From Lingula anatina (Eukaryota; Animalia; Brachiopoda), in assembly GCA_051362555.1 (NCBI GenBank), contig CM120643.1, forward strand, positions 28,896,848-28,960,847: a stretch of 64,000 nucleotides of DNA. Reading direction: 5' to 3'. Both the position numbers and the translations under genes were made by a program. The stretch's first letter is position 1. Each line of letters starts with the position of its first letter. Below the pieces are notes generated by a model. It was not told the DNA's origin and did no database searches. It worked only from the letters and a program-made list of their open reading frames with translations. Below are positions 3,601-61,460 of the stretch, in pieces.

Positions 3601-5281
3601 GAAAGAAAAGGTTCAGTTCAGTTTCAACTGTGGTGTCTGGGGGTGGCTTAAGGTGGAAATTAAACTGCCAAGAAAAATAATATCAAATTTTCAATTTAAA
3701 TATAAAAATGTGTGCCATTATATAACATTTACCACACAGAAAAACCAGGAGGGAGCCTCAATGTTGTATCAAACAATGACACCAGGTGTGACAGGCCAGC
3801 TATATGTATAAAGCTTACAGAAAGTACAGAACAAGCCTGCATTGATGACAGAAAAATAAACCCCTCAAACAGCCAAACAGTCAAACCAGGAAGTAACCTC
3901 AAAATGTTATTTAACATTGACTACAGGTACAATAACCCTCTAACTCAATTGAAACAGGGTGAGAAAACAATATCCACCTCAGGTAAACCAAAGTCTACAA
4001 GAGCACAGGCTGTTGGACATAAAAGAAAACACTCAATTTCTTCAAGATCAGGGTTTTAGAAGATCACCGTGTGCTGTGGCACATGGACGTTACCATGTTC
4101 CTGTTCATTTTTGCCATGGGTTTCAGCACTAGAATGAATCTACCTGTTGAGGCACAGGTTACAGGTGAGTCCAATTAAAAAAAGACAACATCCAACTGTT
4201 TGACGGATAAAAGGCCCCAGGTTAGTGCAATAGAATATATGTAAATTATAAATGTTAGCAATAAAACAGAATTTAAATATTATAACATTCCCTTACAAGA
4301 CATGTGGATGGTGCCCACCCAGACATTTGTTGTCTTTATATCTTTGCAATCTGGTTGGACAAGGGAAATTCATTACTTTTGACATATACATATCTGCACA
4401 ATTATCTAATATATCTTTACCTTAATAACTATTTCCAAACTATCTACTGCCTTCATAAAGTTCAGACTTCTTAAAACTTTATCCAAACGACTTTTTAAAA
4501 GTTTGTGCAAACTTAATAGAAAATATGAGTTAAAAATATTCCACATCATATTTTAGAACAATCCATCATCATCAGTGTCACTTTAACTTCTCTATATTTG
4601 CTCTTGCAGAAATGTTTAGAAGGTCAAGCTGTAAAGGAGATGCCATGGTTCTCATGTGTCCCCAAGGGTCCAGTATCACAGTACTTGAGGCTGTGTATGG
4701 TTACACATTATCAACAGACCACAACTGTGCTGAGGGCAGTCCACCATACTGCAATGTGAACCTCCCAACTGACATACAGCTTACCTGTGATCACAAAGAA
4801 AACTGTACTTTTATTGCAGAATCCAGACATGCTTCATATTGGTTAGGTTGTCCATATAACTTGACCAACAACCTTATTGTTACTTATACCTGCTCTGGGA
4901 TGACACTAACAACTAAAACAACAACAGTGTCTTCCTCCTCACCAGCCACCATTACAGTATACCCAACATACCGCTTTACTTCCCCAGTATCTGCTACAAG
5001 TGCACAGAAAACAACAGCAACAGAGACAGCAAAGCAAGGAAATCCTGAAACAGCCCTTCCTTTTACTAGTTCTATTACAATTATAGGTACTATTTCTGAT
5101 ACTTTAGGATCCACAGTAAACACTTTAAATCCTATAAGAAACTTAAGGATTGATGGAATTCAATGTATGTAATGTAACTTAATACAAGGTCATCAACTTA
5201 TGAGTTAATGCTATTAATTCATAAAAATACATCAGGACAAAGGTGACAGCAATATTGCATTTTTGGTAAAAACTATGACAT

Positions 5282-5352
<71 letters not shown>

Positions 5353-8300
5353 TAGATAACAATTTGAGTCTTTTACAGCACAGTATATCCACTGTTTTAG
5401 GTGCTGTCATTGGAGGCACAATTGGAGCCATATCATTGGGGCTGCTGATTTTTAACATAGCTGCTATCTGCTATATAATCAGGTAAATTAAACTTTGAAC
5501 TTTTTCACTTTCTTTAAAAACTTTATCTGTAACAGGAGCAAGGGAGGGCCCCAAAGACCTGAAATGTTTTCAGAACCAAAACTATGTGTGCTAGTCTTCA
5601 AACCTCTTCCTCAGTTCTGTTGCAAACAAGGCTAAAATGGCAAGCTGAGTCTCAAAGCCCTATACAAATGTGTCATAGGTCATGTGACTTTGAGCCCATT
5701 CCCACAGATCTATCTCCCTGGGGAGTCTCACTAAATTGCTGTCAACATGACCGGCTTAAAGTCTGTCAGACCCGGTAAAGCTGTAAGGGGGAAATTATCT
5801 TTATCTCCTAGGTGATTCGGTAGGCATGAAAGACACATAAGCCAGTTATTTGATAGCAATTTAGTGAGACTCCCCAGAGAGTTAGGTCAATTCAGATGGA
5901 TCGATCTAAGTATGGGAACCCAGTCTTAGTGTCTGCTTTTTTCATATCTAAAAAGGTCTAAAGAAGAAGAACATTTACCTAATTAAAAAATAATCTTATA
6001 AAAGTCAGCTGTATCTGAGGATTTTTTTCTTTACCATTGTAGAAAGAAAAGATCTGAAGAAGCTTTACCCAAATCTCCCGACCATTCTGACCAGACCCAT
6101 GGCAACCAAGATAGCAGTGAGGGTGGGGAAAATGTTTATGCACAGTTAGGAGAGCAGGAACCCCAGCAACAATACACTGAGCTTGAACTCCAGAGAAGAG
6201 GTACTCAGTTCTACGAAGAGAAAGAGAGACAGTACGTGAACCAAGCTTTAGCCCAATCTTCGGACTTTTCTGACCAAACCCACTGGAATCAGGCTGATAG
6301 AGAAGGTGGTGAAAATGTTTATGCACAGTTAGGAGAGCAGGAACCCCAGCACCAATACACTGAACTTGAACTCCAGAGAAGAGGTACTCAGTTCTATGAA
6401 GTGAACGAGAGACAGTACGTGAACCAAGGTTTTCAAATGGGTGTTGCTGACAGCCATGGCATATAAAATCAACTTTTTCAAGATCAAACTGATGATACCC
6501 AGAAAATGGACCTACATGAAATCATAACAGCTGAATGTCAGAAGGAACATATCTATATTACGAACATATTTACCAATAGTATACACAACTGTATGGGACA
6601 GTATATACAAGGCAGCAAAGCTGTCAAATGTACAGACAAAAAGCACATAATAAAGATGCACAAAATATATAATTTTGTCCATTTTGATGCAATAATGCTT
6701 ATAACAGCACAAAATAATAATATATAATGCTTAACAGCATAAGCACCATTACTATTGCTTATATGTGGATATATAGAAAATGATACTTGACGCACAGAGC
6801 TTAAGGTGGATGGGAATGAAAAGTCACATCTTGAAAATGCCATTTTGAAAAATGAAAAAAGGAAACATTACAAAAATATTCCAATAAAGCTGCTATTCAG
6901 TGTAGCCATGTTAATATGATATGAATCATCCCACTTGAGTTTGAAGATAATAAGGCACAGACATCTGTGTCTGTACATAAAAACTGGTACTTCAAAACAG
7001 ACCAGCTACATGTATAAAGCTTATTTATGTACAGAACCTGCACCGATGACAACAATGACAAACCACGCAAAGTTCAAATGAACAATGTTCTTTTTTTGTG
7101 ATGCCAAACAGTCAAACCAGGAAGTAACCTCAAAATGATATTTAACATTGACTACTGGTCCAACAATCCTTCAAATCATTTGAAACAGACTTTACACATC
7201 TCAAGTAAAACCAAAGACTACAAAAACAAAAATTGTTGGACACACGATAAAACACTCAATATCTTCAAAATCAGAGTGTAATAAGATCATTATTTGCTGT
7301 GGAACATGGAAGGCAGGTTTCTTGTAATTTTTGTCTTGGGTTTGAGCATTAGACTGGATGTATCTGGTGGGGCACAGGTTACAGGTGAGTGGAACAGAAG
7401 TCAATATAAGTAAATAAACACAGCATTCTTTTATGGAGCATATGGATGATGCCCACACATATATTTATAGACAATCTTCATATTGGGAGTGTTGCAATTT
7501 AGTTTGATGGGGGAATTTTTGAGAAACTTCTGACATATTTTCAGCACAAATGTCTGTGGTAATCCACTCAAAGTATCAACTGTATTCACTATGCTAAAGT
7601 TTTTCAAAACTTTATGGAAATAATGTTTACAGTTTGTGTACACTTTACTGAAAATATGTGTAAAAAACAAATATTCCATGAACTGTTTGTTATAAAACTT
7701 ATGTTAGAACAATATATACTGTCAATGTCACTGCAAATACTTTCTCTGTTTTTGTTTTTGCTCTTGCAGGTAATATTACAGTAGCAAGCTGTGAGGGAGA
7801 TGTCTTGTTTCTTATGTGTCCCCCAGGGTATCATATCACAGTACTTAGGGCAGTGTATGGCTACACACTATCCACACACAATAACTGTTCTGAGGGAAGC
7901 ATGCCAGAGTGTAACAGAAACCTACCATTTACCATACAGTTGTTCTGTGATAACAGAGAAAACTGTAGTTTTTTAACAGAAGCCAGATTTGTGCCACAAG
8001 GGTCTGGTTGTCCATCTAGCAGAACCAACAACCTTATGATTACATATACCTGTTCAGGGATAACAACAACAACAACAACAACAACAGTGTCTTCCTCCTC
8101 ACCAGCCACCATTACAGTAGCCCCAACATACCACCACACTTCTCTAGTATCTACAACTTTGGTTACTGCTACAAGTACACAGAAAACAACAGTGAAAGAG
8201 ACAACAAAGCAAGGAAACACAGAAACAGCCCTGTCTTTTACCAATTCTATTACCATTATAGGTACTATTTCTGATACTTTAGGATCCACAGTAAACACTT

Positions 8301-11300
8301 TAAATCCTATAAGAAACTGAAGGATGCATACAAAGTCAATTTTTTGTCACAAAAACCAACCAAATGCCAGCATATAGTTTTAAGTAGTATAACTAAGAGA
8401 ATTGCAGAAAGGCAATGTTTAATTTTACCCGAAAATGATGTTTGAACGGGATTTTTCTGCTAGTAGTAGGCTTGTTAAGGACCAAAAAATGGACAAACGC
8501 TGTGTGACGATGTAGTGTGTTAGCTGAGATTATTTTATATTGCTACCGGTAGATGTCTCTGTAAGTAAAGTGTTGTCCGGTGTGCAAGTTTGAATCTCTC
8601 CCGTGATTGGTAACCTAAAGGTAAAACTGTTCACTGTATAGTTGGTTCTGATTGGTAAACGTGTACTATCTGAACTTGTATATAAGGTGTAACGTGAAAT
8701 AAATCGGTCTCTTTGGCTTCTCTCTCTAGCCTCTTTGCGGCTGACTCTTTGGCTCTTTGGCTTCTTTGCGGATCTTTGAGACTCTCTCTATTTATACTCT
8801 GAGACACCAGTAAGTAGCCTACATTGTTATTTGTACCTTCATAAGGCACTCGGCCGCGAAGGCGTAACAATTGGCGCAGCCGACAGGATAGAGTTTGTGT
8901 TGCTTATTAATTGACAGGATAGAATTTTGTGAAGCTAACGTTGTCAATTTACGGGATAGAATTTGTGTAGCTTGTGTAGTTAGAGGATAGAATTAGTAGT
9001 TATTAGTGATATTGGAATTTTTGAAAAGCTTTGTGTATGGCTGAGTGAGAGTTGGAAAGATAGTGACACGTGTTAGTCGGGACTTGTTGCAAGACGCGAA
9101 CTAGTCGGAACATATTGCAGTGATATTTCATTTTCATTGTTGTTTGATACTCGCGGCAATTCAGTAAATATTGTCAAAGTAGTATTCATTTTAGTAGTTT
9201 AGAGATATTTTGTATTAATTTTCTGTTGTGAAACTACACCTGCGGAGATATAGTGGACCACGTGTACTGAGAAGTAGTCGGAAAGACCACGTGTACTGAG
9301 TAGTAGTCGGACAGACCACGTGTAATTACAGGCCAGTGCGTGTAGAGCCTTATGTTGTAATTGGAATACAGAACATAATTTAGTGAGTTTATTTACAAAG
9401 AAAAGCATTTATTTAAAATAAAGGTTTCAAATTTGTGTTTTTCACTGACTTGCTGAATGAAGGAGTGATTGTGAATTGTTTATTGTATATTTTTATCAAT
9501 ATTGCAATAGCATATATTGATAGAGTACTATTCTACCTTGTTCGTCTGTGTTGAAAGTGTTTCATCATAGGTGTACATGTGAGTAGGTTGAATAGTGTGA
9601 GAAATTTGTTTGTATTTACTGTGAAGTTTAGTAGTGGCTTTTTGCTGAAACTTTCTTCAAACAGTAAAGTGTGGTAGTGGTGAAAGTATTTTATTGTGTA
9701 GTTTTTGTGGCACAGCTGCATTGCTATTATCAATAAAATTGTGTAATAGGTTGTGGGAAACTGGAAGTGAAAATGGCGTCGGGTAACGTAGAAAGCAGTG
9801 TTGTGTTGAATGTGCAGACAGCGTCTGAGACAGAATTGAAAAATTTGAAAGGAATTGGTCCAGTGAAAGCTCATAGATTGGTGTCTTTGAGAAATCAAAA
9901 AGGAAAATTGCTGTTGAGTGATTTGGAAGAAATCACTGGTATTAGTGTAGCAGAATGGCAGAAATGGGAAAAGAAGGGTAATGTGATTCTGGGTGTAATG
10001 GAAGAAAAAGATGGTTCAAAAGTTGGAGATGAAAAAAAGGAAGAGAGTGTGAATTGGGAAGAAAAGTATAGAAAGTTGATGGAGCGAGTGAAGGTACAAA
10101 ATGAAATGATATCAAATCTTCGAGATGAGGTTGAAGAAGCTGGAGAAAAGATGGAATTTTTATCAAGTGAATTGGAGATAAATGATGCTAAAGTGAAAAA
10201 GTTGGAAAATGAAAAGAGTGAATGGGAAAAAGAGAAATATGCTTTGGAAAATGAAAAGTATAGTTTGGAAAATGAGAAGTGTGATTTGAAAAATGAAAAT
10301 GATATGTTGAAAGAAAGAAATGTGAAAATTCAGAGTGAGTTGGGAAAAACTAAACAAGTGTTGATGAAAAAAGAAATGGAAATGGAAGAAGAGTGTCGAG
10401 AGTATTCCACAAAAGAAATGATGTTACATACACAGGTTGAAACACAGAATGAATTGTTGAGAAAACGTGTAGAAAGTTTGCAGAAGTGTGAAATTGAAAA
10501 AATGGATTTGAAATTGCAATTGGATGAGATGACAGCCCGTCATGATCATTTGCAAATTCAGTATGAAAGAATGCATTTACAGCATGATTTAGAAAAAATT
10601 CCAAGGCCAACTCCTAGAAATATTAAAACTACTAGACCCACACCTGCACCTAGAAGTAGTAAAAAGAAAAGTTTGGAAACCCCTGTGAAAAAACCAATAC
10701 TGAAACTAGCAGAGAGTGAAAGTGATAGTGAAAGTGAAAGTGAATCTGAATGTGAACAGAAAAGAGTTCCTTTAGTTGAAAGAGAAAAAGGACCTGTTCA
10801 TAAAATGCCTAGTTTTAGTGGGAATGGAAGAGAAAATTGGGAAGCTTTTGTATTTAAATTTGAAGGAATGGCAGAAAGATACGGATGGAATGATAAAAGA
10901 AAAACTAGCAGAATGATTGAATGTTTGGAAGACAGAGCTCTTGAGTATGCGGTGGAGTTTGGAAACTGCAAATATAAACGTTTGAAAGAAGTGATGTCAA
11001 AACGTTTTAGTATGAAAGAGTCTGCTTCATCTGCGCGTAGAGCACTTCAATCAATGAGGCAGGGTGAAAGTGAATCTTTGCAAGATTTTTCTCATCGTGT
11101 GTTCATGGCATCTAGAGAGGGATATGCAGAAGGTGGTGAGGGAATAGCTGTGGATTCATTTTTGAGAGGGTGTCGTGACAAAGAATCTGCAAAATTGGCT
11201 ATGGATAAAGAGCCTAAAGATTTATTTGAAGCGTTAGAGTTTGTGAAAGTTGCAAACAATAACTTCAAAGCTGTGTATGGTACAGGTGGAAGAAATGTGC

Positions 11301-14300
11301 ATATTAGACAAGTTGGAATGTCTGATCAGAGTGTGGAGAATGGAAGTGGAAATCAATTACTCTACAACATGCAAAGAACCATGTCTGCAATGTGTGATCA
11401 GATGAAAAGAATGAATGACACATGGGTGTCACCGTCAAATTCTCAGAGAAATTCTGGTAGAATGATAAAGTCGCCCCAGAATGGAAACATAAATCAAAGT
11501 AGAGGGGGTCCACCACAATGTTTTAAATGTGGAGAAAGAGGTCATGTTCAAAGGGATTGTAAGAATGAAAATGTAGAACATCCACCTAATCCCAATGTTA
11601 GTAAAAATGCCAGCCCAAGTTCTATTTTGATTTGTAATAAATGTGGACAAAGAGGTCACATTCAAACAAATTGCCCTCAAAATAGAGAAATGCCAAAGAA
11701 TCCTCCTCCCGGTGCAAGAAATTCGGTAAACTAGAACGGGACGAATTGACCGACCGGATTTCGGATCCCTTACTTCATGTTGAAGGTCGGATTATGGATA
11801 GTGGAAATGTGAAAATGATGAATGTTGGAGAGTTAGTAGGAGAAAATTTTGTGATTCCTGTTAGTGTAGGTGGTGTGAAAACATTAGCAGTTGTGGATAC
11901 GGCAGCTCAATTTACTATCGTAAATAAAAGATTTTATAGTAAATTGCAGGGTGTGCCTGAGTTTTGTGAGAATTTGAAATTAATGCTTGCTGGAAAAAAT
12001 GCATTTATGATGGGTCATAGAGTAGAAAATTTGAGTATTGAGATAGATGGGATAGAGTATAAGGAAAATGTGTATGTTGCAGATTTGCAAGAAGGAATTG
12101 ATATGTTGTTGGGATTGAAGTTTTTGAAGGAGAGAAATTGTGTGGTGAATTTAGTTGATCAAACATTGATCATTGGAGAGAAATGTGTGCAGGGAAGCAT
12201 AGAAGTTGAAGGTGACTCTGATTTGAGTAAAGTGAATGGTGAGACAGAAGCTAAAAGTGATGAGAGATGTGTTGATGAAATGGAGAGAGAAGTTGAAATT
12301 TGTGAAAATATGGTGAGAACGAAAAAGAGAATAGTAGTTCCTCCATTGACGGTGATGAAAATTTCTGTTTGTGCAGATTATGAGTTAGAGAAAAAGAAAG
12401 AGTATGTGATAGAACCTTGTGTTGATAGACAAGTGTTGGTATCTTGTGCATTAGTTAAAGGTGATGATGTTGTTCCTATAGAGATAGTGAATGATGGAGA
12501 AAGAAATGCTGTTTTGAAAGCAGGTAGTGTGTTAGGTGTTATTAAGGAAGTTGAGACAGTTGATTCTGAAGTGAGATGTGAAGATGTAGATGGAAAAGCT
12601 AGGGTGTCTGCTGTGAATAAAGTTGAAATGAAGTTGAATATAGATGAAAATGTGGATGAAGAAGAAGTGATGAGAAGTTTGAAAAGAGATTTGCCTGAAC
12701 ATTTGCAAAATTTATTTGAAAGGTCAAGTGAGGATCTTGATTCAAATGAAATGGTTGCATTGTGTGAAACTTTGAGAGATTATGAAGATGTATTTGCAAA
12801 GCATGATCTTGATTTAGGATGCATGAAAGGTGTTAAGCATACTATTAACACTGGTAGTGCAGCTCCTGTGAAACAGAAATTGCGTAGAACTCCATTGGGA
12901 ATGGAAGGAGAAGAGAGAAAGATGCTTGAAAAGTTGTTAGCTTCTGATGTTATTCAGCCATCAAATTCTGAATGGGCATCCCCACCAGTATTGATAAGAA
13001 AGAAAGATGGAAGTGTTAGATGGTGTGTGGATTATAGGGAATTAAATAAGAAAACTATCAAAGATTCTTATCCTATTCCAAACATTGGTGATTGTTTAGA
13101 TTGTCTGGCTGGAAATCAATTTTTGAGTTTGATTGATATGGCTCAAGGATATTTTCAAATTGAAATTGATGAGAAAGATAGAAATAAAACTGCTTTTATC
13201 ACCAGATATGGTCTGTATGAGCATAAGAGAATGGCTATGGGACTTACCAATTCTCCTGCAAGTTTTTCGAGAGCAATGCAGTTAGTATTGAGAGGTTTGA
13301 CTTGGGAGAAAGTGTTGGTGTATCTGGATGATATCACAGTGTTGGGAAAGAATTTTGAAGATCATCTTAAGAATTTGAAAGAGGTTTTGGAGAGATTGCG
13401 TTCTTACAACTTGAAGTTAAAGCCTAAGAAATGTTTTCTTTTCCAAACAAAGTGTGAATTCTTAGGAAAGTCAATCAGTAGAGAAGGTGTTGGTATAACT
13501 GAGAGTAAAGTTGAGTGTGTTAAAAAGTGGCCAGTACCTACAAACAAAAAGGAAGTTGAAACATTCCTTGGTTTCATCAATTATCATAGAGATCATATTC
13601 CTCAATTTGCTGAGAAAACTGCTTGTTTGTATGAGTTGACAGGGATTAAAAGTGTTTTCAATTGGTCAAATGAACATCAAATAGCATTTGAAAGTTTAAA
13701 ACAAGAGTTAACAACTGCCCCTTGTTTAGCCTTTCCTTTGTCTGAAGGTGAATTTATACTTGATACAGATGCATCATATTCATGTATAGGAGCAGAACTT
13801 TCACAGATACAACATGGTGAAGAGAAGGTTATTGCTTATGGAAGTAAAATTATGTCACCTATACAGCGGCGTTATTGTACAACTAGAAAAGAGCTCTTGG
13901 CTGTTGTAAACTTCTGTAGACAATATAGACATTATTTGTTGGGAAGAAAGTTCAGAATCCGAACAGATCATCATAGTTTAGTGTGGTTGTTAGGATTTAA
14001 AAACCCAGATGGTCAGTTAGCAAGATGGTTAGAAGAATTATCTCAATATAATTTTACCATTGAACATAGACCAGGAAAGAAGCATGGAAATGCAGATGCA
14101 TTATCAAGAATACCTTTAGCTATGAAAGTGTGTGATTGCTATAAGGTGGGAGTGAAATTGAGTGACTTACCCTGTGAAGGATGTCATTATTGTCAGAGAG
14201 TACATAAAAATTGGTCAAGGTTTGAGACTGATGTGAATGATGTAATTCCTCTGGGAAATAAGAAATCAGATGACAATGTAGTTGAATTGAATGTAGTTGG

Positions 14301-17300: not shown

Positions 17301-20300
17301 GATAACTGTTCCAAGGAGGACATTAACTTTGTGAAAATATACATTCATGGAAATGGTATGGAGCCTAAGACTGAGATTCTGAATTCTTTGTTGACTTTGT
17401 TTCACTGGAAAACTTTGTATCATCTGTTACAAAAACTTTCATCAGAGGATCGTGAACTCTGTAGTCATTGGTATCGGCGGATGAAATTTACTTTGCTACA
17501 TGGATGAAAAATGAACTATATAATGATTTTGACATTTCACATTGACATTGTTATCATTAATAATGTTGTTTTGAGCAACTTTGAGTTAAAATCACTTTGT
17601 TTGCTTTTAAAGTTGATTTAAAGTGATAATGGATTTAAAACTTTGTTTTGCATTCCTAAGGATGGACATTTATGCTGAGAGATGGACTTGATTGACTTTG
17701 CTTGTGTTAAAGATAAATGTTGAATCTTGGCATAACAAGAATGACTTATTTGCATTACTTGCGTATTTTAAATGTAAAGTACCATTTCAGTTGTTGAATT
17801 ATAATAATTATTAGTTTAACAATTTAAAGTAATGGTTTATATTGTAATAATAGGGGGGAGTTTTGTTCGTCAAAAGGGGGGAGAGTGTGACGATGTAGTG
17901 TGTTAGCTGAGATTATTTTATATTGCTACCGGTAGATGTCTCTGTAAGTAAAGTGTTGTCCGGTGTGCAAGTTTGAATCTCTCCCGTGATTGGTAACCTA
18001 AAGGTAAAACTGTTCACTGTATAGTTGGTTCTGATTGGTAAACGTGTACTATCTGAACTTGTATATAAGGTGTAACGTGAAATAAATCGGTCTCTTTGGC
18101 TTCTCTCTCTAGCCTCTTTGCGGCTGACTCTTTGGCTCTTTGGCTTCTTTGCGGATCTTTGAGACTCTCTCTATTTATACTCTGAGACACCAGTAAGTAG
18201 CCTACATTGTTATTTGTACCTTCATAAGGCACTCGGCCGCGAAGGCGTAACAGCTGCATTTTGTAGTACAAATGTCTAACTTGGCATAAATGTTCCTTGG
18301 GCCAAAAGAAATTTTTTTATCCAAAGAGACGTGCTCTATCGATGCATAAATTAGCATAAATTATGCAAATTGGGTGCCAAAATATATTATATTTCACATT
18401 TCAATTAATTTTTGGCCTAGAAACATGTACAGATTATCAAACCTGACTAAATTAGGGACAAGGAACCCATTTTTGATCATTGGAAGCAACTGGTGGCCAT
18501 TTTGTGCCTCAAATCCAAGATGGCCGCCACCTGCACTTTTGAAAGTGGACCTTATTTTTGCTATTTTATGTTGAATTTTGAAGCGTTTGGTCTATATATA
18601 CTTGATATATATATCGATTCCTACCATTTTGGGGATGCAAAAGTCATTTTTGATATTGTTATGGTGATAGTAGGTGATTTAAAGGGACAAAGAGGGTGTT
18701 TTAAGTGCCTACCAAGATATGTGTGAACGCTGCAAAACCATGGATATTGATAACCCGTATTCAAATATATCTCAATGCAATTTTTGTGATGTACCTGTAT
18801 AACCATCGCTATTGGACTATATTATGAGCAAAAAACAAATTTCACCATTATGGAGGCCATTGGTGGCCGTTTTATCCCTCAAATCCAATATGGCCGCCAA
18901 AAACCATTTTGAAATTGCACCCTCTTTGGCCCTTCAAATTACCTACTATCATCAAAACAATATCAAAAATGCATCCCCAAAATAGTAGGAATCGATATAT
19001 ATATAAAGTATATATAGACCAAACGCTTCAAAATTCAACATAAAATAGCAAAATTATGGTTTACATGTGTTACTGGGAATCCACGCTCCACCGATGCCTG
19101 GTTCGTATGTACCTTTAAGGATTGGTGGAATTCAATGTATGTAATATAACTTGATACAACATAATCAACTTTTAGCCTTGTTTGCATAAAAAACTGGTAC
19201 CTCAAAACAGACCAGCTACATGTATAAAGCTTATAAATGTACAGAACCTGCACTGACGACGACAATGACAAACCACTTAAACTTTGATTGAATTATGTTC
19301 TTCTTTGTTGTGCCAAACAGTCAAACCAGGAAGTGACCCCAAACTGATATTTAACATTGACTACAGGTACAGCAATCCTTTAAATCAATTGAAACAGGCT
19401 TAAACAGCAATATACTTCTCAAGACTACCAAAGTCTACAAAACCAAAAATTGTTGCACACATGAAAAAACGCTCAATTTCTTCAAAATCAAAGTGTAATA
19501 AGATCAATATTTGTTGAGGAACATGGAAGGCAGGTTTCTTGTAATTTTTGTATTGGGTTTGAGCACTAGACTGTATGTATTTGTTGGGGCACAGGTTACA
19601 GGTGAGTAGAACCAGTGTATGAAATGGCCGCCAGCCCGCCAGCCCGAGGCTGGTAACTTTCAGGCCGGGCGGGTAAGATTTACAAATTACCCGCCCGACG
19701 GGCTGGCTATTTTTATAGCCTATTTTCAACTTTTATTTTGTCTATGTTCACAAGCGATTTCAGCAAAATATCAAACCAACTCACTGTTTTCACCCACTTT
19801 CATAGAAGCAAAGAACTAACCATAGCTTGCAATCGAACGCTCATATCGAAATGTAACCAAGTCTCCCTCTCAGTGGCCTAGTTTTCAAAGTTCCGTCTGT
19901 GTTATATGAAGTTGAAAGACAATTTGAAACGAGGCACATTGTTCTTAACCAGCTTCAGTGCACAGTAGATAACGTTACGTCATTGTTTTGTGTAGAGGAG
20001 ATACCACGAGTAGCAATTTGTAGGTTGAGAGTTATAAAAATGTGAAAATATAAAAAGTTATGATATTGATTAAATAGACTTACAGGTACATGAAGTGCTT
20101 ATAATCAACAGTAACTAGAGGATCAGAGAGGCGATACCGCCTCCGAATATTGTACCACCAGCTGGAGTAAGCGCATTCGTATAGACCCCCACATACACAA
20201 AATAAGGGACAAAGCCACCAGTCTTGTGCTTGACAAGCTGTAAAAATGCAATCAACAAGAATTTTCAAAATATGCAAAAAATATATATAACTAAAAATGG

Positions 20301-23300
20301 TACAATCAAAGTTTAGTTCATCGCAAGGTAGGTCAAAGGTCAATTTCAAGGTCACAGTACATTGCCAGTATATGACTTCCTATTCAACTTCAATGGTAAC
20401 TATGGACCTATCTCTGCCAGGTTTGGAGTTAAAAGAGAAAGAAATCAGCAGAGTTCAGTTCATGATAATAAGTAGGTCAAAGGTCAATTTCAAGGTCACA
20501 TTTAGTTTACCAGTACATGACTTCCTATTCAAGTTCAATAGTAACTATGGACCTATCTCTGCCAGTTTTGGAGATAAAAGGGAAGCAGAATTTGCAAAGG
20601 TTAGTTCATGGTGAAAAGTAGGTCAAAGGTCAATTTTAATGCCAGTATATGACTTCATATTCAAGTTCAATAGAAACTATGGACCTATCTCTGCCAGTTT
20701 TGGAGATAAAAGGGAACCAAAATTTGAAAAGTTCAATTCATGGTGAAAAGTAGGTCAAAGGTCAATTTCAAGGTCACATTTAGATTGCCAGTATATGACT
20801 TCCCATTCAAGTTCAATAGTAACTATAGACCTATCTCTGCCAGTTTTGGAGATAAAAGGGAAGCAAAATTTGCAAAGTTCAGTTCATGATGAAAAGTAGG
20901 TCAAAGGTCAATTTCAAGGTCACAGTAAGATTGCCATTATATGACTTCCTATTCAAGTTCAATAGTAACTATGGACCTATCTCTGCCAGTTTTGGAGATA
21001 AAAAGGAAGCAAAATTTGCAAAGTTCAATTCATGGTGAAAAGTAGGTCAAAGGTCAATTTCAAGGTCACATTTAGATTGCCAGTATATGACTTCTATTCA
21101 AGTTCAATAGTAACTATGGACCTATCTCTGCCAGTTTTGGAGATATAAGGGACTAAATGTTATAATTTTGGAGTTACCATAATGTGCCATAAATTTTCTA
21201 CTGAAAAAAATTAATAAAAATATTTAGAAAAGGTCATTTTGGTCAAAATTCTTGAAATGGGAGGTGCTCTGAAGTTCCAGATGTTCAAATTTGATGAAAT
21301 AATGTCATTTTTGACCACAAGTTGTCTGCTTTGCCAAGCCTTATGTTTTATTTTTCCGGAGTTCAAAATTTATTATCCATTACCGTACTGCACATTTTGC
21401 TTTCACCACCAATATGTACTTTTTGATACAGCGTAACTCGAAAACCGTATGGAATACAAAAAAACGGAGACCACCTTCAGTGTTGGGCTTTACATGCTCT
21501 ACAAAATGCAAAAAAAAGAATGGGTCTCTAGCATTAACGGTTCCCCAATTAGAGACAGTTTTCAGTTTCGGTATCTTATGGCCGCTACTCCAGTGAAAAT
21601 GCACCGATTGACCCCAAATTCACAGAGATGAAAGATGACCTGAAAAGTAACACTTTCCAATAATATTATTGGTTAAGTCTGTGTAGTATCTGAATAACAG
21701 GGCAAATAATTTTTTTTTCGTAAAAAAATTCATTTTTTTGAAAATTTTGGCCCGTTTGACCTTGAAATAAAGGTCAAAGGTCAAATCCAATCGCATATTT
21801 GAAATCTACACATATGACTTTTGGAAAGCCGTCTGTAGAAATTTTTCCCATAATTCCTTCCGTAGGGTAGATAATTAGCATTTAATTTTGCCATTTTTAG
21901 ACAAGGGTGCATTGCAATGAGTGCCACACCTAGACCCCAATACCGACAAAGCCCAAATTTTAAGTGGAACGAGTTGAGGTTATAGGTGACCTAAATCCAA
22001 GAGATGGGTACGGGGGCCCTTACCGTCTAGGAGGAGAAGCGGTAACGGTAGCCGTCCGGCGGAGCCGGCGGAACGATCCGGACGGGACTAAAACCATGTG
22101 TACCGCCAGCGCTAACGCTGGTGGTACAATAGAGGCAACGGAGGCAAATGAAAGGAGAATTTTACAAAAAATTTGAATCCCAAAATTATGAGTGAACATA
22201 CGAGTTTACGCCGTGCGTCAGACGTAGTTCTTTTCCCACGTGCTTTCATCTTGGGCTATCAAAAATAAAAAAAAATTCTATCAAGTTCGATAGAGAAGTT
22301 CACAAAAGAAAAACTATTGAGGGAAGAAATAAAGATAAGAAAGATTATGACAGAACCAAACGAAAGAGAACAAATTTGGACCCATGGAAAGGTGACTTCG
22401 ATTTGCAATGAGTCGAGCGGCAACATTTTTTGTAAAACCGATACTCGAAAGTATCACGCATTGCGACCGAGCGCAAGCATCTCGATCCAATAACTCGCCC
22501 ATACTCGCCCCATATAATATATTGTAGACTCTTTGTGATATAACTATTCTCAATAAGCGATGCTTTTGAGATACGGGGCCCTGCAGGACTGTCTATGGGC
22601 CATTAGCGTGCAGGACCGTTCCCGACCGCTTTAAGCGATATTCAATGGGACCCTACGTGCTGAATTCTTTCTTCTTTATTGTCAGCACAGAGATCAGTTT
22701 ATTTCACAAGAATATATATGTATTTGGTCAAACTTGTTGCAATACAGAAAGGCAGAAATTATGATCAAATGATATCATGAAATCGGAATAAAAGTTATGA
22801 ATAAATTATTGAAGAAGAAATGAGACAGCCTGCAGGGTGAACATAAACTGAATTGACTACCCCCCCTCCCCCACCCGCTAAAGGGCCCTGAAAATTTTTG
22901 GTATTTTAGATAGTGAATGGTGCCATTTGGTGTGGTTTAGAACTATGATTCAACTAGTGAAAAGTCTTATTTCAAGAGGGTTTTTTTTTTGCAGAAATTG
23001 AAAGGGGGGGGGCGTCAGGACCCCCCTGACCCCCCTCTAAATCCAACACTGACAAGGTATCATTCAGTAGAAATTCCAACCAATTTCTAAATTTCCACGC
23101 ATAAGGCATGATATTGCCCTTTCTTTTCCAAATTACTCTCCCCAGAATGCATTCTAGACCCCCTCAGCATACCTCTCTTAACTCTAGGGGTTATCATAAC
23201 TAGGGCAGGTAACTACATGGCTGGGCTGGTAACTTTTCAGAGTTACCTGCCCCGTGGTCTGGCTTGTAATTTCCTTGAATTTCATACACTGGTAGAACAG

Positions 23301-24346
23301 AAGTCAATATCAGTAAATAAACACAGCATTCCTTTATGGAGCATATGGAAGTTGCCCACACATATATTTTAAGTTAATTCTTCTTATTGGGAGTTTTGCT
23401 ATTTAGTTTAATGGAGGAAATTCAAAACTTCTGACATATTTTCAGCACAGATGTTTACGTTAATCCCTGCAAAGTATCAAATGCATTCAGATTTTTCAAA
23501 ACTTTATAGAAATGGCATTTCTACAATTTTTGCACACTTTATAGAAAATATGAGTAAAAAGCAAATATTACATTCACTAGCTGTTTGTTATAAAATATAT
23601 GTTATAAAACACACTGTCAATGCCACTGCAACTTCTTTCTCTGTTTCTGTTTTTGCAGGTCATATTACAGTATCAAGCTGTGAGGGAGATGTCATGGTTC
23701 TTATGTGTCCCCCAGGGTCCAGTATCACAGTACTTGAGGCATTGTTTGGATATACATTATCAACAAACAACAATTGTTCTGAGGACAGTATACCAGAGTG
23801 CACTAGAAACTTCCCAACTGACACACAGTTGCTCTGTGATCACAGAGAAAGCTGCAGTATTATTGCGGTGTCCAGATATGTGTCACCTGGGCCTGGTTGT
23901 CCATCTAACTGGACCAACAGCCTTATGATTACTTATACCTGCTCTGGGATGACAATAACATCTACAACAACAACAACAACAACAGCGTCTTCCTCGTCAC
24001 CAGCCACTATTACAGTCACCCCAACATACCAATTCACTTCCCCAACTCTGGTTACTGCTACTAGTACAAAAGAAACACCAGCAATTACAGAGACAGTAGA
24101 GCAAGGAAACCCTGACATAGCCCTGCCTTTTACTAGTTCTATTACAATTACAGGTACTATTTCTGATACTTTAGGATCCACAGTAAACACTTTAAATCCT
24201 ATAAGAAACTTAAGGATTGATGGAATTCAATGTATGTAATGTAACTTAATACAACATAACTTATGAGTTAATGCTGTTAATTCATAAAAATACATCAGGG
24301 CAAAGGTGACAGCAACAATGCATTTTTGGTAAAAACTGTGACATTG

Positions 24347-24403
<57 letters not shown>

Positions 24404-27400
24404 GATTTGAGTCTTTGAGTCTTTTACAGCACAGTATATCCACTGTTTTAGGTGCTGTCATTGGAAGCACATTGGGGGCCATATCACTGGTGCTGCTAAT
24501 TTTTAATATAGCTGCTATTTGCTATATATTCAGGTGAATTTAACTTTGAACTTTTTCACTTTCTTTAAAAGCTTTATCTGTAACAAGAGCCGTGAAGGGC
24601 CCCAAAGACCTGAAATGTTTTCAGAACCAAAATTATGAGTGCTAGTCTTCAAAGCTCTTTCTCAGCCCTGTTGCAAATAAGGCTAAAATGACAAGCTGAG
24701 TCTCAAAGCCCTATACATATGTGTCATAGGTCATGTGACTTCGACACCATTCCCACAGATATTTGGATCAATCTATCTCCCTGGGGAATCTGACTAAATT
24801 GCTGTCAACTTAACCGGCTTAAATGTCTGTCAGACCCGGTAACGCTGTTAGGGGGTAATTATCTGTACCTCCTAGGTGATTCAGCAGGCGTGACAGACAT
24901 ATAAGCCGGTTATTTGATACACGTAGCAATTTAGTGAGACTACTCAAAGAGTTAGATTGATTCAGATGAATCGATCTAACTATGGGAACCCAGTCTTAGT
25001 GTCTGCTTTTTTCATATCCAAAAAGGTCTAAAGAAGTAAAACATTTACTTCATTAAAAAATAATCTTATAAAAGTCAGCTGTATCTGAGGATTTTTTTCT
25101 TTACCATTGTAGAAATAAAAGATTTGAAGCTTTACCCAAATCTCCCGACCATTCTGACCAGACCCATGGCAACCAAGATAGCAGTGAGGGTGGTGAAAAT
25201 GTTTATGCACAGTTAGGAGAGCAGGAACCACAGCAACAATACACTGAACTTGAACTCCAGAGAAGAGGTACTCAGTTCCACAAAGAGAACGAGAGACAGT
25301 ACGTAAACCAAGCTTTACCCCAATCTTCAGACAACTCTGACCAAATCCACAGGAATCAGGCTGATAGAGAAGGTGGTGAAAATACTTATGCACAGTTAGG
25401 AGAGCAGGAACCCCAGCACCAATACACTGAACTTGAACTCCAGAGAAGAGGTACTCAGTTCTACGAAGTGAACGAGAGACAGTACGTGAACCAAGGTTTT
25501 CAAATGGGTATTGCTGACAGCCATGGCATATAAAATCAACTTTTTCAAGATCAAACTGACGATACCCAGAAAATGGACCTATATGAAATCATGACAGCTG
25601 AATGTCAGAAGGAACATATCTATATTACGAACATATTTACCAATAGTATACACAACTGTATGGGACAGTGTGAACAAGGCAGCTGTCAAATGTACAGACA
25701 AAAAGCACACAATAAAGATGCACAAAATATATCATTTTGTCCATTTTGATGCAATAATGCTTATAACAGCACAAAATAATAATACATAATGCTTAATAGC
25801 ATAAACACCATTACTATTGCTTATGTGGTAATACAGACAAATGTTACTTGTACAGAGCTTCTGGTGGATGGGGGTGAAAAGTCACATCTTGAAAATGCCA
25901 GTTTGAAAAATGAAAATTTAAAAAAGGAAATATTACCAAAATATGCCAATAAAGCTGCTATTCAATCCAGCTGTATTGACATGATATGAATCCCACTTGA
26001 GTTTGAAGATAATAAGGCACAGACATCTGTGTCTGTACATAAAAATTAGTACTTCAAAACAGACCAGCTACACGTATAAAGCTTATAAATGTACAGAACC
26101 TGCATTGATGACAACAATGAAAAACCACTCACAGTTCAAATGAACTATGTTCTTTTTTGTTATGCAAAATAGTCAAACCAGGAAGTAACTTCAAAATGAT
26201 ATTTAACATTGACTACTGATCCAACAATCCTTCAAATCAATTGAAACAGACTTTACACATCTCAAGAAAACCAAAGTCTACAAAAACAAAAATTGTTGGA
26301 CACACGATAAAACGCTCAATTTCTTCCAAATCAGAGTGTAATAAGATCATTATTTGCTGTGGAACATGGAAGGCACATTTCTTTTTATTTTTGTCTTTGG
26401 TTTGAGCACTAGACTGGATGTATCTGGTGGGGCACAGGCTACAGGTGAGTGGAACAGACTAGTAAGAAGTTTTAACTATTATACTAAAATATAAGTAGAT
26501 AAATATGGCCTTCCTTTATAGGACATACGGATGTCTTCATATTCTGAGTGTTGCTGTCTGGTTTAATGGAGGAAATTCAAAACCTACTAACATATTTTCA
26601 GCACAAATGTCTATGGTAATCTATTCAAAATATCAACTGTACTTGTTGAGCTCAGATTTTACAGAAACCATGTTTCTACAGTTTATGCACAATTTATAGG
26701 AAATATGTGTAAAAAACAAATATTCCATGCACTGTTTGTTATGAAATTTACAGAACAATACACTGTCAATGTCACTGCAACTTCTTTCTCTGTTTTCATT
26801 TTTGCTCTTGCAGGTCATATTACAGTAGCAAGCTGTGAGGGAGATGTCACAGTTCTTATGTGTCCCCCTGGGTTCAGTATCACAATAACTGAGGCATTGT
26901 TTGGCTACACACTATCCACAGGCAACAACTGTTCTGAGGGAAGTATACCAGAGTGCAATAGAAACCTACCAGCTACCATAAAACTTATCTGTTATAATAG
27001 AGAAAGCTGCATTTATATCACAGAAAGCAGAATTGTGCCACAAGGGTCTGGTTGTCCATCTAGCAGGACCAATAAACTTATTGCTACATATACCTGCTCA
27101 GGTATGACAATAACAACAACAACAACAGTATCGTCTTTCTCACCATTACATCAGCCACCATTACAGTTACCCCAACATACCAACTCACTTCTCCAGTATC
27201 TACAACTCTAGTTACTGCTACAAGTACACAGAAAACAACAGTGACAGAGTAGCAAAGCATGAAAATCCTGAAACAGCCCTGCCTTTTACTAGTTCTATTT
27301 TCAGTACAGGTGCACGGGGAACTATTATTTCTGATACTTAAGGGGCCAACAGTAACCACAAGAACACCTACATGATATAATCTAAAGTATTTCATGTAAT

Positions 27401-29539
27401 ATTAAGTGCAACATAATCAACTTATGAGATAATACTGTTAATTCATAAAAATACATCAGGGCAAAGGTGACAGCAGCATTGCTTTTTTTGGTAAAAACTG
27501 TAACATTGATTTCAAACTGATCCCTTACCCAAACAAGAGTTTTAATGACTATTTATTCACAATGCCTCACTACACTTGGGTTGACAACTTTGATCAACAT
27601 TTTACAGCAGTTATTTCTTAGCCTTTGATAAGTATGTACTTTACATATATATGGTAAGTGAAGATACACATGGTAAATTGAGTCTTTTACAGCTCAGTAA
27701 TCCACTATTTTAGGTGCTGTCATTGGAGGCACATTGGGAGCCATATCACTGGTGCTGCTGATTCTTATGATAGTTGCTGTCTGCTATATGTTCAGGTGAA
27801 TTCAACTTTGAGCTTTTTTTCACTTTCTTTAAAAGCATTATCTGTAACAGGAGCAAGGGAGGGCCCCAAAGACCTGAAATGTTTTCAGAACCAAAACTAT
27901 GTGCGCTAGTCTTCAGTCTTGTTGCAAACAAGGCTAAAATGGCAAACTGAGCCTCTAACCCCTATACACATGTGTCAAAGATCATTCAACTTTGTGTCTG
28001 CTTTTTTCATATTAAAGAGAGTCTATTGAATTAGAAATGTTAACCTTATAAAAAACACCTCTTTAGATCAGTGGTGTCTGGACATATTTTCTTTTATTAT
28101 CATTTTAGAAAGAAAAAACTTCAAAAATCCCAATCTTCCGACTACTCTGACCAAACCCACAGCAATCAGGAGGACAGAGAAGGTGGTGAAAATACTTATG
28201 CACAGTTAGAAGAGCAGGAACACCAGCAACAGTACACTGAACTTGAACTCCAGAGAAGAAGTACTCAGTTCCACGAAGAGAACGAGAGACAGAGTGTGAA
28301 CCAACGTCTACCCCAATCTTCAGACAACTTTGACCAAACCCACAGCCATCAGGATGACAGAGAAGGTGGTGAAAATACTTATGCACAGTTAGGAGAACAG
28401 GAACCCCAGCAGCAATACACTGAGCTTGAACTCCAGAGAAGAGAATGAGAGATAGTATGATAATCAAGGTATTGAATGGGGTGATCTTGACGACCCTGGA
28501 ATATTAAAAGAACTTTCTCAAGATCAAACTGATAATACCAAGAAATCAAACATGAAATCATGACAGCTGAATGTCAGATGGAACATATCCAGTAAGAGAA
28601 TATTTATCAACAGTATACAAAACTGTATGGGATAGTATGAAAACAATGTATATAACTACACATGTATCATGTTAACAATGAAGCTACCGATCCGGACATT
28701 TTGACAATTCTGCACTGCTTTCATTGTGTATTGTAACAGTATTTTACTAACAAGATTATAATCCCTCTACTTTTTTACTTTAGATACTAAACTGCGCTGG
28801 TTTCAATTCAGAGTATCAAAAAGAATTTTAGCTACAAATAATTTTTTACGAAAAATTGGGATAAAAGACACAGAGACCTGCTCCTTCTGTAACGAACACC
28901 CTGAAACTCTTCAACACTTATTTATTGAGTGCAAAGTAATTGCTCCCCTTTGGGCAAAAATACAAGACTGGATCCATTTAAAGACTGGACTTGTATTACA
29001 ATTAACAGCACCTGATATAATTCTAGGAATTCCAAATTTGAAATGCAATGCGCTCAACAGTTTGCTGATCATAACAAAATTTATTATATATAAATTTAAA
29101 ATGAAAAACATTACCCCGAACATAGAAAATATTAAAATAGAATGGAGACAGGCCTACATCGCAGAGAGAAATATAAGTCTGAGAAACATGACAATAGATA
29201 AATTTAATGAAAAATGGAAAAAGCTGCAGCCTCTCTTCCTGGACTGATATCTTCTATCTGCGTATGTTCCCCTGCCAATATTTGAAAGTAAAACACATAT
29301 TTGTTTTTATCTGTATTAGATCATATTATTTATTAAGTATTATTAAGTATTCTACTATTAGGTTATCAATATATCGTTGTTGACATATATAATAAATGAC
29401 ACAGTAACTATATATATATATATTGCAAATGACTGAGTGTCTCTCTGTGAGTGAGTGAGTGAGAGAGTGAGTGATTTTTATTTAGTTATTTATAAATTTT
29501 GTATTTTTTGCTGAAATCTGTACTTATTTGAGATTTGCA

Positions 29540-29584
<45 letters not shown>

Positions 29585-42064: not shown

Positions 42065-61460
<19,396 letters not shown>

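Follow-up and report, generated by a model that had tools for sequence, protein, structure and literature searches.

Receptors of the Dectin-1/CLEC-2 type combine a type II topology with a C-type lectin domain and a single hemITAM. DAP12, FcR-gamma, and CD3-zeta have a tiny ectodomain with a cysteine, an acidic residue inside the transmembrane (TM) helix, and an ITAM tail, and the ectodomain of Draper is built of EGF repeats. ITAM receptors are also already known from invertebrates, including oyster, Hydractinia, and Botryllus. That a lectin receptor of an invertebrate may feed into (hem)ITAM-Syk signaling has already been published for the oyster C-type lectins CgCLec-HTM and CgCLec-TM1, which have a C-type CRD and one hemITAM and for which association with Syk and binding of LPS and bacteria are reported (reviewed in PMC13027682). 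Oyster CgIgR is a single-chain receptor with five Ig domains and a classical ITAM that acts via Syk-ERK in hemocytes (PMC6994640). The Alr proteins of Hydractinia (PMC9546547) and the FcoR proteins of Botryllus (PMC12065747) are described as tandemly encoded type I receptors with Ig-superfamily ectodomains, ITAM or hemITAM tails, ITIM-bearing members, pseudogenes, one exon per module, ectodomain-TM alternative splicing, variable gene content, and a genetic tie to allorecognition. Drosophila Draper is a protostome ITAM-Shark engulfment receptor conserved across animals (cited in PMC9546547 and PMC5978004). The RBL fold, finally, is found in the ectodomains of EVA-1/EVA1C, latrophilins, and PKD1L2, where the sugar-binding Glu or Lys is often substituted (PMC2430599).

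The locus described here lies in a 64,000-nucleotide stretch of Lingula DNA (the window), and its sequence supports a type I single-pass protein in which a domain of the SUEL/RBL fold is linked to a pair of conserved ITAMs in tandem. Like the oyster CgCLec proteins, this would be a lophotrochozoan membrane receptor with a lectin fold and a tyrosine activation motif, but with a SUEL fold, two full ITAMs, and a degenerate sugar site. It shares the single chain and the classical ITAM with CgIgR and differs in having a SUEL domain in place of the Ig domains. The tandem arrangement, the pseudogenes, and the modular exons recall Alr and FcoR; in contrast to these, the Lingula cluster has four copies, a SUEL fold, no ITIM-bearing copy among its three tails, and no known tie to allorecognition. 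There is one SUEL domain per gene, compared to two tandem RBL domains in EVA-1, and a single TM helix compared to the 7TM latrophilins. The type I order, the SUEL fold, and the two full ITAMs set the family apart from the Dectin-1/CLEC-2 type, and whereas Draper is conserved across animals, the searches for relatives of this family found none outside Lingula. Searches of sequence databases and the literature found no SUEL+ITAM receptor and returned no ITAM receptor from the brachiopod phylum, in agreement with the first-pass annotation of this DNA, which had considered the architecture undescribed.

Organization of the cluster and exon models

The four copies, here called A to D, are located on the plus strand within a 26.7-kb intron of CCNDBP1/GCIP, which is encoded on the opposite strand and contains the entire cluster (3468..30175, minus strand; tblastn, splice sites, and Pfam GCIP_C). 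The CCNDBP1 exons were placed at 31831-30174 and 3468-653 by tblastn with the L. anatina protein. All four start codons are preceded by an invariant 16-bp block (3879..3894, plus strand, for the first copy) with the 3' end CAGGAAGT, which we take to be an ETS-like core; this 8-mer is found at 3887, 7118, 19327, and 26179. The block is weak evidence, since common descent alone has left 60% of the upstream sequence invariant among the four copies. Two insertions were delimited by reading their junctions. Intron 2 of copy B contains one at 8321..19114 (ends approximate), in which a Gypsy-type element is nested (8502-18252), recognized by its LTRs of 368 bp, which are 100% identical, and its ORFs of 665 and 1374 aa. 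Intron 1 of copy C contains the other (19613..23291), which is bounded by terminal inverted repeats and encloses a tandem array with a unit of ∼146 bp (20307-21152).

Copies A and C (354 and 358 aa, respectively) can be joined at GT-AG sites into one frame running through a leader, an 8-Cys SUEL-fold domain, a Ser/Thr stalk, a TM helix, and two canonical ITAMs. In copy A, exon 1 (4083..4164; this and all following exons on the plus strand) encodes the predicted signal peptide; it is covered by RNA reads in run X7 and shares 81% identity with the N-terminus of the L. anatina RefSeq protein discussed below. Exon 2 (4610..5086), identified by profile and frame, contains the SUEL-fold domain (4612-4899) and the stalk. 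Exon 3 (5401..5482; GT-AG, in frame) encodes the TM helix with GxxxGxxxG, and exon 4 (6043..6466) the basic stop-transfer sequence, with RKKR after the helix, and two 61-aa modules, assigned by their motifs and by X4 reads from the expected strand. The corresponding exons of copy C are located at 19523..19601 (predicted signal peptide), 23659..24153 (SUEL-fold domain at 23661-23948 and stalk; profile, structure model, and frame), 24452..24533 (TM helix), and 25113..25533 (tail).

The acceptor of the TM exon is preferably placed at 5401, 24452, and 27714, because the conserved donor reads into this site in frame, the site is present in all three copies, and the match to the RefSeq ortholog starts at 5401 and continues downstream. 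Acceptors 5379 and 5384 were dropped, being out of frame with donor 5086, as were in-frame alternatives in a search range ending before 5401, which needed weak donors or micro-exons. The X4 depth in the bin preceding the exon was 0.03, compared to an expected 0.12 for acceptor 5401 and 0.34-0.40 for the other acceptors, a comparison that amounts to ∼2 reads.

The other two copies are altered. Copy B retains exon 1 (7306..7384) and exon 2 with SUEL-fold domain and stalk (7770..8320), in which the homologous donor lies at 8261 and reading through it leads to a stop at 8320. Exons for a TM helix and a tail are missing further on: after the ∼10.8-kb insertion, the sequence continues into the upstream region of copy C. 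Judged from its frame, B is a truncated copy that could give at most a secreted 209-aa form. In copy D, the stalk (27102-27309) is frameshifted, and the homologous long exon 2 (496 nt, with +5 and -1 indels) is out of frame and reaches a stop at 27211. A consensus donor, CAG/GTATGA, is located at the end of the D lectin domain and is private to this copy (A, B, and C lack it). Its predicted use would give a short exon 2 with the SUEL-fold domain (26814..27101), and only by this route is copy D predicted to be whole, as a stalkless 262-aa protein, together with exon 1 (26366..26444), exon 3 with the TM helix (27714..27795), and exon 4 with two ITAMs, no YxN site, and a shortened end (28109..28448).

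The first-pass annotation had assigned the full architecture to all four paralogs. This holds for A and C, but not for the truncated B and only conditionally for the frameshifted D. The Thr/Ser stalk (44-49% Ser/Thr), the GxxxG-type TM helix, and the RKKR of the first copy were borne out. A signal peptide had been proposed for every copy; assessed by hydropathy alone in a 19-residue window, the leaders of B, C, and D reach peaks of 1.4-2.0, but that of A stays below 1.3.

Transcripts and the RefSeq ortholog

RNA runs were picked by species label, with a depth of ∼1-2 reads, and were examined for the region of copies A and B. The exon 1-2 splice was found in X4 (four reads, two starts) and X7 (six reads, four starts), and all X4 coverage of the TM and tail exons came from the strand that a plus-strand transcript would give. 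Two of the four runs, X1 and X2, had essentially no exon coverage. These reads point to low expression and support the exon 1-2 splice. The junction check suggested with the original proposal was successful for this splice, but neither a lectin-TM nor a TM-tail junction was among the spliced reads listed for the four runs; we infer these two joints from the sequence and the RefSeq ortholog. We do not attribute the spliced reads of X4 to copy C, as of their five listed differences from B three match C and three match D. The few spliced reads differ from every copy in the window, which fits alleles or further paralogs.

The L. anatina gene LOC106160361 adjoins CCNDBP1 (by accession), encodes leader, TM helix, and ITAM tail in a single protein, and is likely the ortholog, judged from its sequence. 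Its leader resembles that of A, its TM helix and tail those of C, with 87% identity to the A tail. The two models were named automatically, with no reference to an ITAM (XP_013392397.1, "involucrin-like" X1; XP_013392398.1, "uncharacterized" X2) and have three and two ITAM modules, respectively. Both isoforms are without the lectin domain and the stalk, so the lectin-to-ITAM join rests on the frames in the window itself. Between leader and TM helix, this lectin-less form has ∼13 residues with one Cys, and the helix carries an Asp and a Glu at its outer end, not mid-membrane.

Twin ITAMs and probable copy turnover

Six ITAM-pattern motifs are present on the plus strand, each reading E-N-x-YAQL-x8-YTEL, as originally noted: at 6137-6184 and 6320-6367 in copy A, 25204-25251 and 25387-25434 in C, and 28197-28244 and 28380-28427 in D. 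They belong to a duplicated tail module of 61 aa (183 nt). An ITAM is defined as YxxL/I-x6-9-YxxL/I located on the cytoplasmic side of a TM helix, in the tail; the motifs of A, C, D, and the RefSeq ortholog have a spacing of x8 and an acidic residue at -3 and follow a TM helix and basic stop-transfer sequence. When the residues of one module were shuffled 200,000 times, the pattern [DE]xxYxx[LI]x6-8Yxx[LI] arose 44 times, and as many shuffles of the complete A tail gave it 153 times, which argues against chance from composition (323 and 830, respectively, if the acidic residue is not required). All nine modules of the window and the ortholog have the same ITAM tyrosines and leucines, where a loss of the tyrosines would have spoken against the proposal, and the 19-residue core has 4 extra amino-acid states compared to 28 in the 42 flank columns of the six window modules; as these six descend from one, such counts are not independent. 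The proposed constant YVNQ/Grb2 site is less regular: YVN follows the ITAM in five of the nine modules, but is missing from the rest, including all of D. No relatives of the tail were found among proteins of 246-2000 aa (weak evidence), and none with these ITAMs outside Lingula, the conservation being seen within Lingula only. Tail matches to Pfam (DUF3828 and others) were all below the cut-off and were read as chance.

The signaling half is nearly identical in A and C, while the outer domain differs: the two copies share 79.5% of their DNA sequence over the lectin domain, but 97.4% in the 5' part of intron 2, 91.4% in intron 3, 95.2% in the tail, and 94.1% in the 3' UTR. Recombination alone can explain this pattern. 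For the lectin domain, a test for positive selection gave dN/dS values of 0.52-0.99 over six pairs, never above 1. In the tail dN/dS is 0.35-0.40, and pN is below pS beyond the bootstrap interval in two of three pairs. These data bear on the possibility that the cluster is a weakly expressed duplication which is decaying in an intron rich in transposons, and whose ITAM arose once, was multiplied by tandem duplication, and does not signal. Such decay would agree with two of four copies being damaged, two carrying large insertions, the very low read depth, the dN/dS near 1 of the lectin domain for the A-C pair, and the common ancestor of the window modules. But each of the four domains keeps the full set of eight cysteines, with 64-70% of the protein sequence shared with C, the tail has pN < pS, the ITAM core is steadier than its flanks, and the ortholog retains frame and motifs. 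We therefore regard decay as highly improbable.

The outer domain and its possible ligands

The eight cysteines follow the RBL pattern, as seen in an alignment with homologs, and are located at identical positions (7, 16, 39, 47, 59, 65, 80, and 94) in the domains of all four copies, A, B, and D being 64-70% identical to C. Each exon-2 domain matches the whole Pfam profile SUEL_Lectin (PF02140; E 3e-7 to 8e-6), but the 26.7-31.0 bits are slightly below the curated gathering cut-off of 31.4. The best PDB sequence match is the L-rhamnose-binding lectin 5h4s (E 6e-8). A predicted model of the domain, of modest confidence (pLDDT 66), gave only latrophilin Lec domains or RBLs among the top ten PDB ranks in Foldseek (probability 1.00, E 0.003-0.02, none ≤0.001, TMq up to 0.60), the top matches being latrophilin Lec domains in protein complexes. 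Profile, sequence, and structure model thus agree with the 8-Cys SUEL-type domain first proposed. Its closest homologs share ≤38% identity.

The attribute "glycan-sensing" was not supported. The equivalents of R65, G117, and K120 of the latrophilin-1 RBL and the Asp of DPC are replaced in all four domains, the E42 equivalent is lost in A (kept in B, C, D, and A-like reads), and Y63 is F in C and D. The rhamnose-binding signature (YGR and DPC..KYL motifs and the Glu42/Tyr63/Gly117/Lys120 site) is thus not found in these domains, while among 54 distant homologs the Lys is kept in 33 and [YF]GR in 41. In latrophilin-1, K120R and K120A are reported to leave no detectable binding, and loss of sugar-binding residues is described for receptor RBL domains (PMC2430599); the CSL3 site is formed by the same residues (PMC3269628). 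With the usual sugar-binding residues gone, the ligand is probably not rhamnose or galactose. A Dectin-like sensor, whose SUEL domain binds microbial rhamnose, galactose, or LPS-type sugars and triggers ITAM-dependent phagocytosis, is for these reasons unlikely, despite the fold of rhamnose-binding lectins with 5h4s as best match, the retained E42 equivalent, a Lys one position off the canonical K120 in D, and the LPS-binding, hemITAM-Syk-coupled lectins of oyster (PMC13027682). A different sugar site would be compatible with the sequence.

The nearest membrane-bound SUEL proteins are annotated as EVA-1/EVA1C-like, and the top folds are protein-bound latrophilin domains. This could point to a non-immune receptor for adhesion, guidance, gamete recognition, or an epithelial role, in which the YxxL pairs dock Shark/Src adaptors or drive endocytosis; Shark is described in arthropod cytoskeletal and epithelial pathways (PMC13344425). 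But none of the eight homologs (of 54 matches) with a hydrophobic segment beyond residue 35, EVA-like ones included, has an ITAM, and the family, with its restriction to one lineage, turnover of copies, variable number of ITAMs, and divergent outer domain, is closer to Alr/FcoR than to conserved developmental genes. Such a role seems rather unlikely, if somewhat less so than sugar sensing.

On balance, we lean towards viewing the Lingula family as predicted single-pass SUEL-fold surface proteins with two conserved ITAMs, likely activating recognition receptors with a ligand that is probably neither rhamnose nor galactose. In the protein read in frame in A and C, from leader through SUEL domain, stalk, and GxxxGxxxG helix to the twin-ITAM tail, the outer domain would bind a protein or non-canonical surface ligand via two diverged loops, as has been argued for receptor-type RBL domains. 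According to established ITAM biochemistry, ligand-driven clustering, possibly aided by the glycine-rich helix, would lead to phosphorylation of the four tyrosines by a kinase of the Src family; every YAQL-x8-YTEL pair could then serve as a docking site for a tandem-SH2 kinase such as Syk or Shark, and Grb2 may be added where the optional YVN site is present. The output might be engulfment or defense against microbes, damaged cells, or non-self, and CgIgR provides a precedent for ITAM-Syk signaling in another lophotrochozoan (PMC6994640). The family would turn over by birth and death, as partly seen in one truncated copy, one predicted stalkless copy, and an ITAM number of two to three. A bolder version, which we consider doubtful, is that brachiopods independently built a modular SUEL-fold ITAM system, in which diverged outer domains that do not bind sugar read a protein or self/non-self ligand, one locus gives stalked, stalkless, secreted decoy, and lectin-less DAP12/FcR-gamma-like forms, and two to three ITAMs tune the signal.

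Public annotation ("involucrin-like", "uncharacterized") masks this gene and leaves out the lectin exon. Since the usual sugar site is lost, the family offers a compact test of non-carbohydrate ligands for receptor-type RBL domains. The SUEL/RBL fold would be a new addition to the ITAM-coupled outer domains of invertebrates (Ig, C-type lectin, EGF), in support of an ancient ITAM output that has been put to use again and again, with each lineage inventing its sensors anew.

Exon structure and genomic setting of the gene copies

Self-comparison of the window identified four related units (copies A to D) on the plus strand between 4083 and 28448. The first-pass annotation had credited all four with the full architecture of leader, SUEL-type domain, stalk, transmembrane (TM) segment and twin-ITAM tail. 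Exon 1 is present in every copy (79-82 nt, phase 1, CAG/GTGAGT), and exon 2 always opens with a 96-codon Cys-rich domain. Copies A (354 aa, TM acceptor 5401) and C (358 aa, TM acceptor 24452) have GT-AG introns and one terminal stop. The long exon 2 of copy D, in its homologous form, is out of frame owing to +5 and -1 indels. Use of a consensus donor at 27101, private to D and located precisely where the domain ends, is predicted to yield an open, stalkless 262-aa protein via the TM acceptor at 27714. Copy B ends after exon 2, where an insertion of ~10.8 kb harbors a nested LTR element; behind the insertion, ~60 nt of B intron are followed by the upstream region of C. Based on these frames and splice sites, A and C are whole, D is conditionally whole and B is truncated. 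Read-through of B could give a candidate secreted 209-aa protein, and a candidate in-frame splice over 16 kb could join B to the TM exon of C. The Gypsy-type LTR retrotransposon (8502-18252) is nested in another element and its insertion is very recent: the 368-bp LTRs are 100% identical, and both the gag-like frame (665 aa) and the pol-like frame (1374 aa) are open. It also contains a Cys/His-rich frame of 244 aa (16773-17507).

The gene flanking the cluster is CCNDBP1/GCIP, as indicated by a Pfam GCIP_C match. One exon in the window is 89% identical to L. anatina CCNDBP1, the sole match among 452 candidates, and a second L. anatina copy reaches up to 100% identity to the window exons. RefSeq contains two near-identical CCNDBP1 proteins of this species on different contigs. 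Since tblastn places CCNDBP1 exons on each side of the cluster, copies A-D all lie antisense inside one intron of 26.7 kb, delimited by tblastn and splice sites (3468-30175). The sequence CAGGAAGT, with an ETS-like core, occurs five times in the window, four times within a conserved block upstream of each copy (3887, 7118, 19327, 26179). These four sites are related by descent and therefore weigh little as separate evidence. Exons at 39248-61460 on the minus strand belong to a candidate gene that we take to be WDR7 (rabconnectin-3 beta)-like. It harbors a LINE-type reverse transcriptase frame (46355-49801, 1148 aa) and an ORF1-like frame (49998-52400, 800 aa). A 48-bp tandem repeat of ~1.25 kb at 55327-56584 has two open minus-strand frames and gives many spurious YxxI-spaced matches.

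A conserved ITAM tail and a SUEL domain with a substituted sugar site

As first annotated, each tail consists of two 61-aa modules with E-N-x-YAQL-x8-YTEL, which falls within the ITAM consensus Yxx[I/L]x6-9Yxx[L/I] (PMC9546547). The strict pattern arose in 44 of 200,000 shuffles of one module. The Tyr and Leu anchors are unchanged in all nine modules compared, six from the window and three from RefSeq model X1 of the likely orthologue LOC106160361, so that conservation of the ITAM tyrosines holds in this relative; the modules share ancestry and such counts are not independent events. The YVN site reported to follow the ITAM is found in five of the nine and missing from the other four. The ITAM core is less variable than its flanks, and the tail dN/dS is 0.35-0.40. 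The lectin values are higher (0.52-0.99, six pairs), and none of the six pairs exceeds 1.

The SUEL/RBL assignment is secure because three methods agree. The full Pfam SUEL_Lectin profile matched all four domains (E 3e-7 to 8e-6, just below the curated cut-off), and a PDB sequence search returned three matches, an L-rhamnose-binding lectin and two latrophilin Lec domains. An AlphaFold model (8-sequence alignment, pLDDT 66) ranked only latrophilin Lec domains and RBLs among its top 10 folds, none at E<=0.001. The proposed glycan sensing was not supported. In the RBL domain of latrophilin-1, rhamnose is contacted by Glu42, Tyr63, Gly117 and Lys120, Arg65 and Lys120 are buried and have a structural role, and K120R and K120A abolish detectable binding (PMC2430599); CSL3 uses the same site plus YGR and DPC motifs (PMC3269628). 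All four domains carry substitutions at the Arg, Asp, Gly and Lys positions, A also at the Glu and C and D at the Tyr, whereas 33 of 54 distant homologues retain the Lys. Judged from these residues, the domains do not qualify as functional rhamnose-binding lectins. Copy D has a Lys one residue from the canonical position and A-like RNA reads contain the Glu, so residual or altered sugar binding is possible. Receptor RBL domains have been argued to take non-carbohydrate ligands (PMC2430599).

Relatives, divergence between copies and transcripts

A HMMER search with the C domain against 1.84 billion representatives gave 54 proteins at E<=0.001, with at most 38% identity. A hydrophobic segment lies beyond residue 35 in eight of them, none of which contains an ITAM. 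A tail alignment search retained one protein among 7,990 candidates scored, model X2 of LOC106160361 from L. anatina; model X1, in the same cluster, is annotated 'involucrin-like'. Accession numbers and the length of its contig put this locus next to CCNDBP1. In both models an A-like leader, followed by ~12 residues similar to the opening of exon 2, runs straight into a C-like TM exon and two (X2) or three (X1) ITAM modules, without lectin domain and stalk. This layout supports the TM acceptor and the TM-tail join, but not the lectin-TM join. The lectin-less models may reflect alternative splicing, a deletion allele or an artefact of assembly. In them, Asp and Glu take the place of the first two Gly of GxxxGxxxG, and a single Cys precedes them by two residues, a loose and possibly accidental likeness to short ITAM adaptors.

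Between copies A and C, identity is 79.5% over the lectin domain, 87.8% over the TM exon and 91-97% over the introns, the tail and the 3' UTR downstream of the stalk. This contrast suggests that the signalling half was homogenised recently or that the outer half was exchanged. Within intron 2, the 5' part (A, 5087-5280; C, 24154-24345) is 97.4% identical, and the stalk frame stays open for ~28 codons until a stop; gene conversion is possible, as is a secreted form that retains the intron.

Of nine RNA runs available under the species label, four were mapped on 3900-8400, with ~6-25% of each run read; most of the mapped reads lay in repeats of introns or UTRs. In the parts read, runs X1 and X2 gave essentially no exon coverage. 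Run X4 covered the TM and tail exons at ~1-2 reads, solely from the mate direction expected of plus-strand RNA. In 4 reads with 2 starts it also contained a GT-AG joint between exons 1 and 2; this copy is of B/C/D type, and its letters match no window copy exactly. Run X7 covered the copy A exons thinly, with six reads in which exon 1 and the lectin exon, both A-like, are linked (22 letters differ at the joint). The RNA supports the first joint; lectin-TM and TM-tail joints did not reach the threshold of three reads in these partly read runs. Below this threshold, two X7 reads skip 225 tail bases (6109-6335, 3 other letters between), perhaps a variant with fewer modules.

Comparison with known receptors and proposed signalling

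Receptors of invertebrates that combine an ITAM or hemITAM with C-type lectin domains (PMC13027682) or Ig domains (PMC6994640, PMC9546547, PMC12065747) have already been published. A receptor pairing SUEL with an ITAM is not described in the accessible text of PMC13027682, PMC8878817 or PMC5978004, that of PMC13712769 mentions neither, and our literature search, with most subscription journals outside its reach, found none. Together with the eight ITAM-less homologues that carry a hydrophobic segment, this agrees with the initial view that the architecture is undescribed. Taken together, the original observation was confirmed in part and its interpretation is partly supported; the A-D family is neither a Dectin nor EVA-1.

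Syk is reported in invertebrates having CARD-CC/Bcl10 (PMC5978004); the accessible text and supplement of that paper, and the accessible part of PMC13344425, make no statement on Syk in Lingula. For lophotrochozoans, the role of SUEL lectins has been called elusive (PMC8878817). We infer that the A-D family functions in the manner of an activating, single-chain ITAM receptor. By analogy with established ITAM biochemistry and with oyster CgIgR, which signals via Syk-ERK (PMC6994640), clustering would lead to Src phosphorylation and docking of a tandem-SH2 kinase, and thereby to engulfment or defence.
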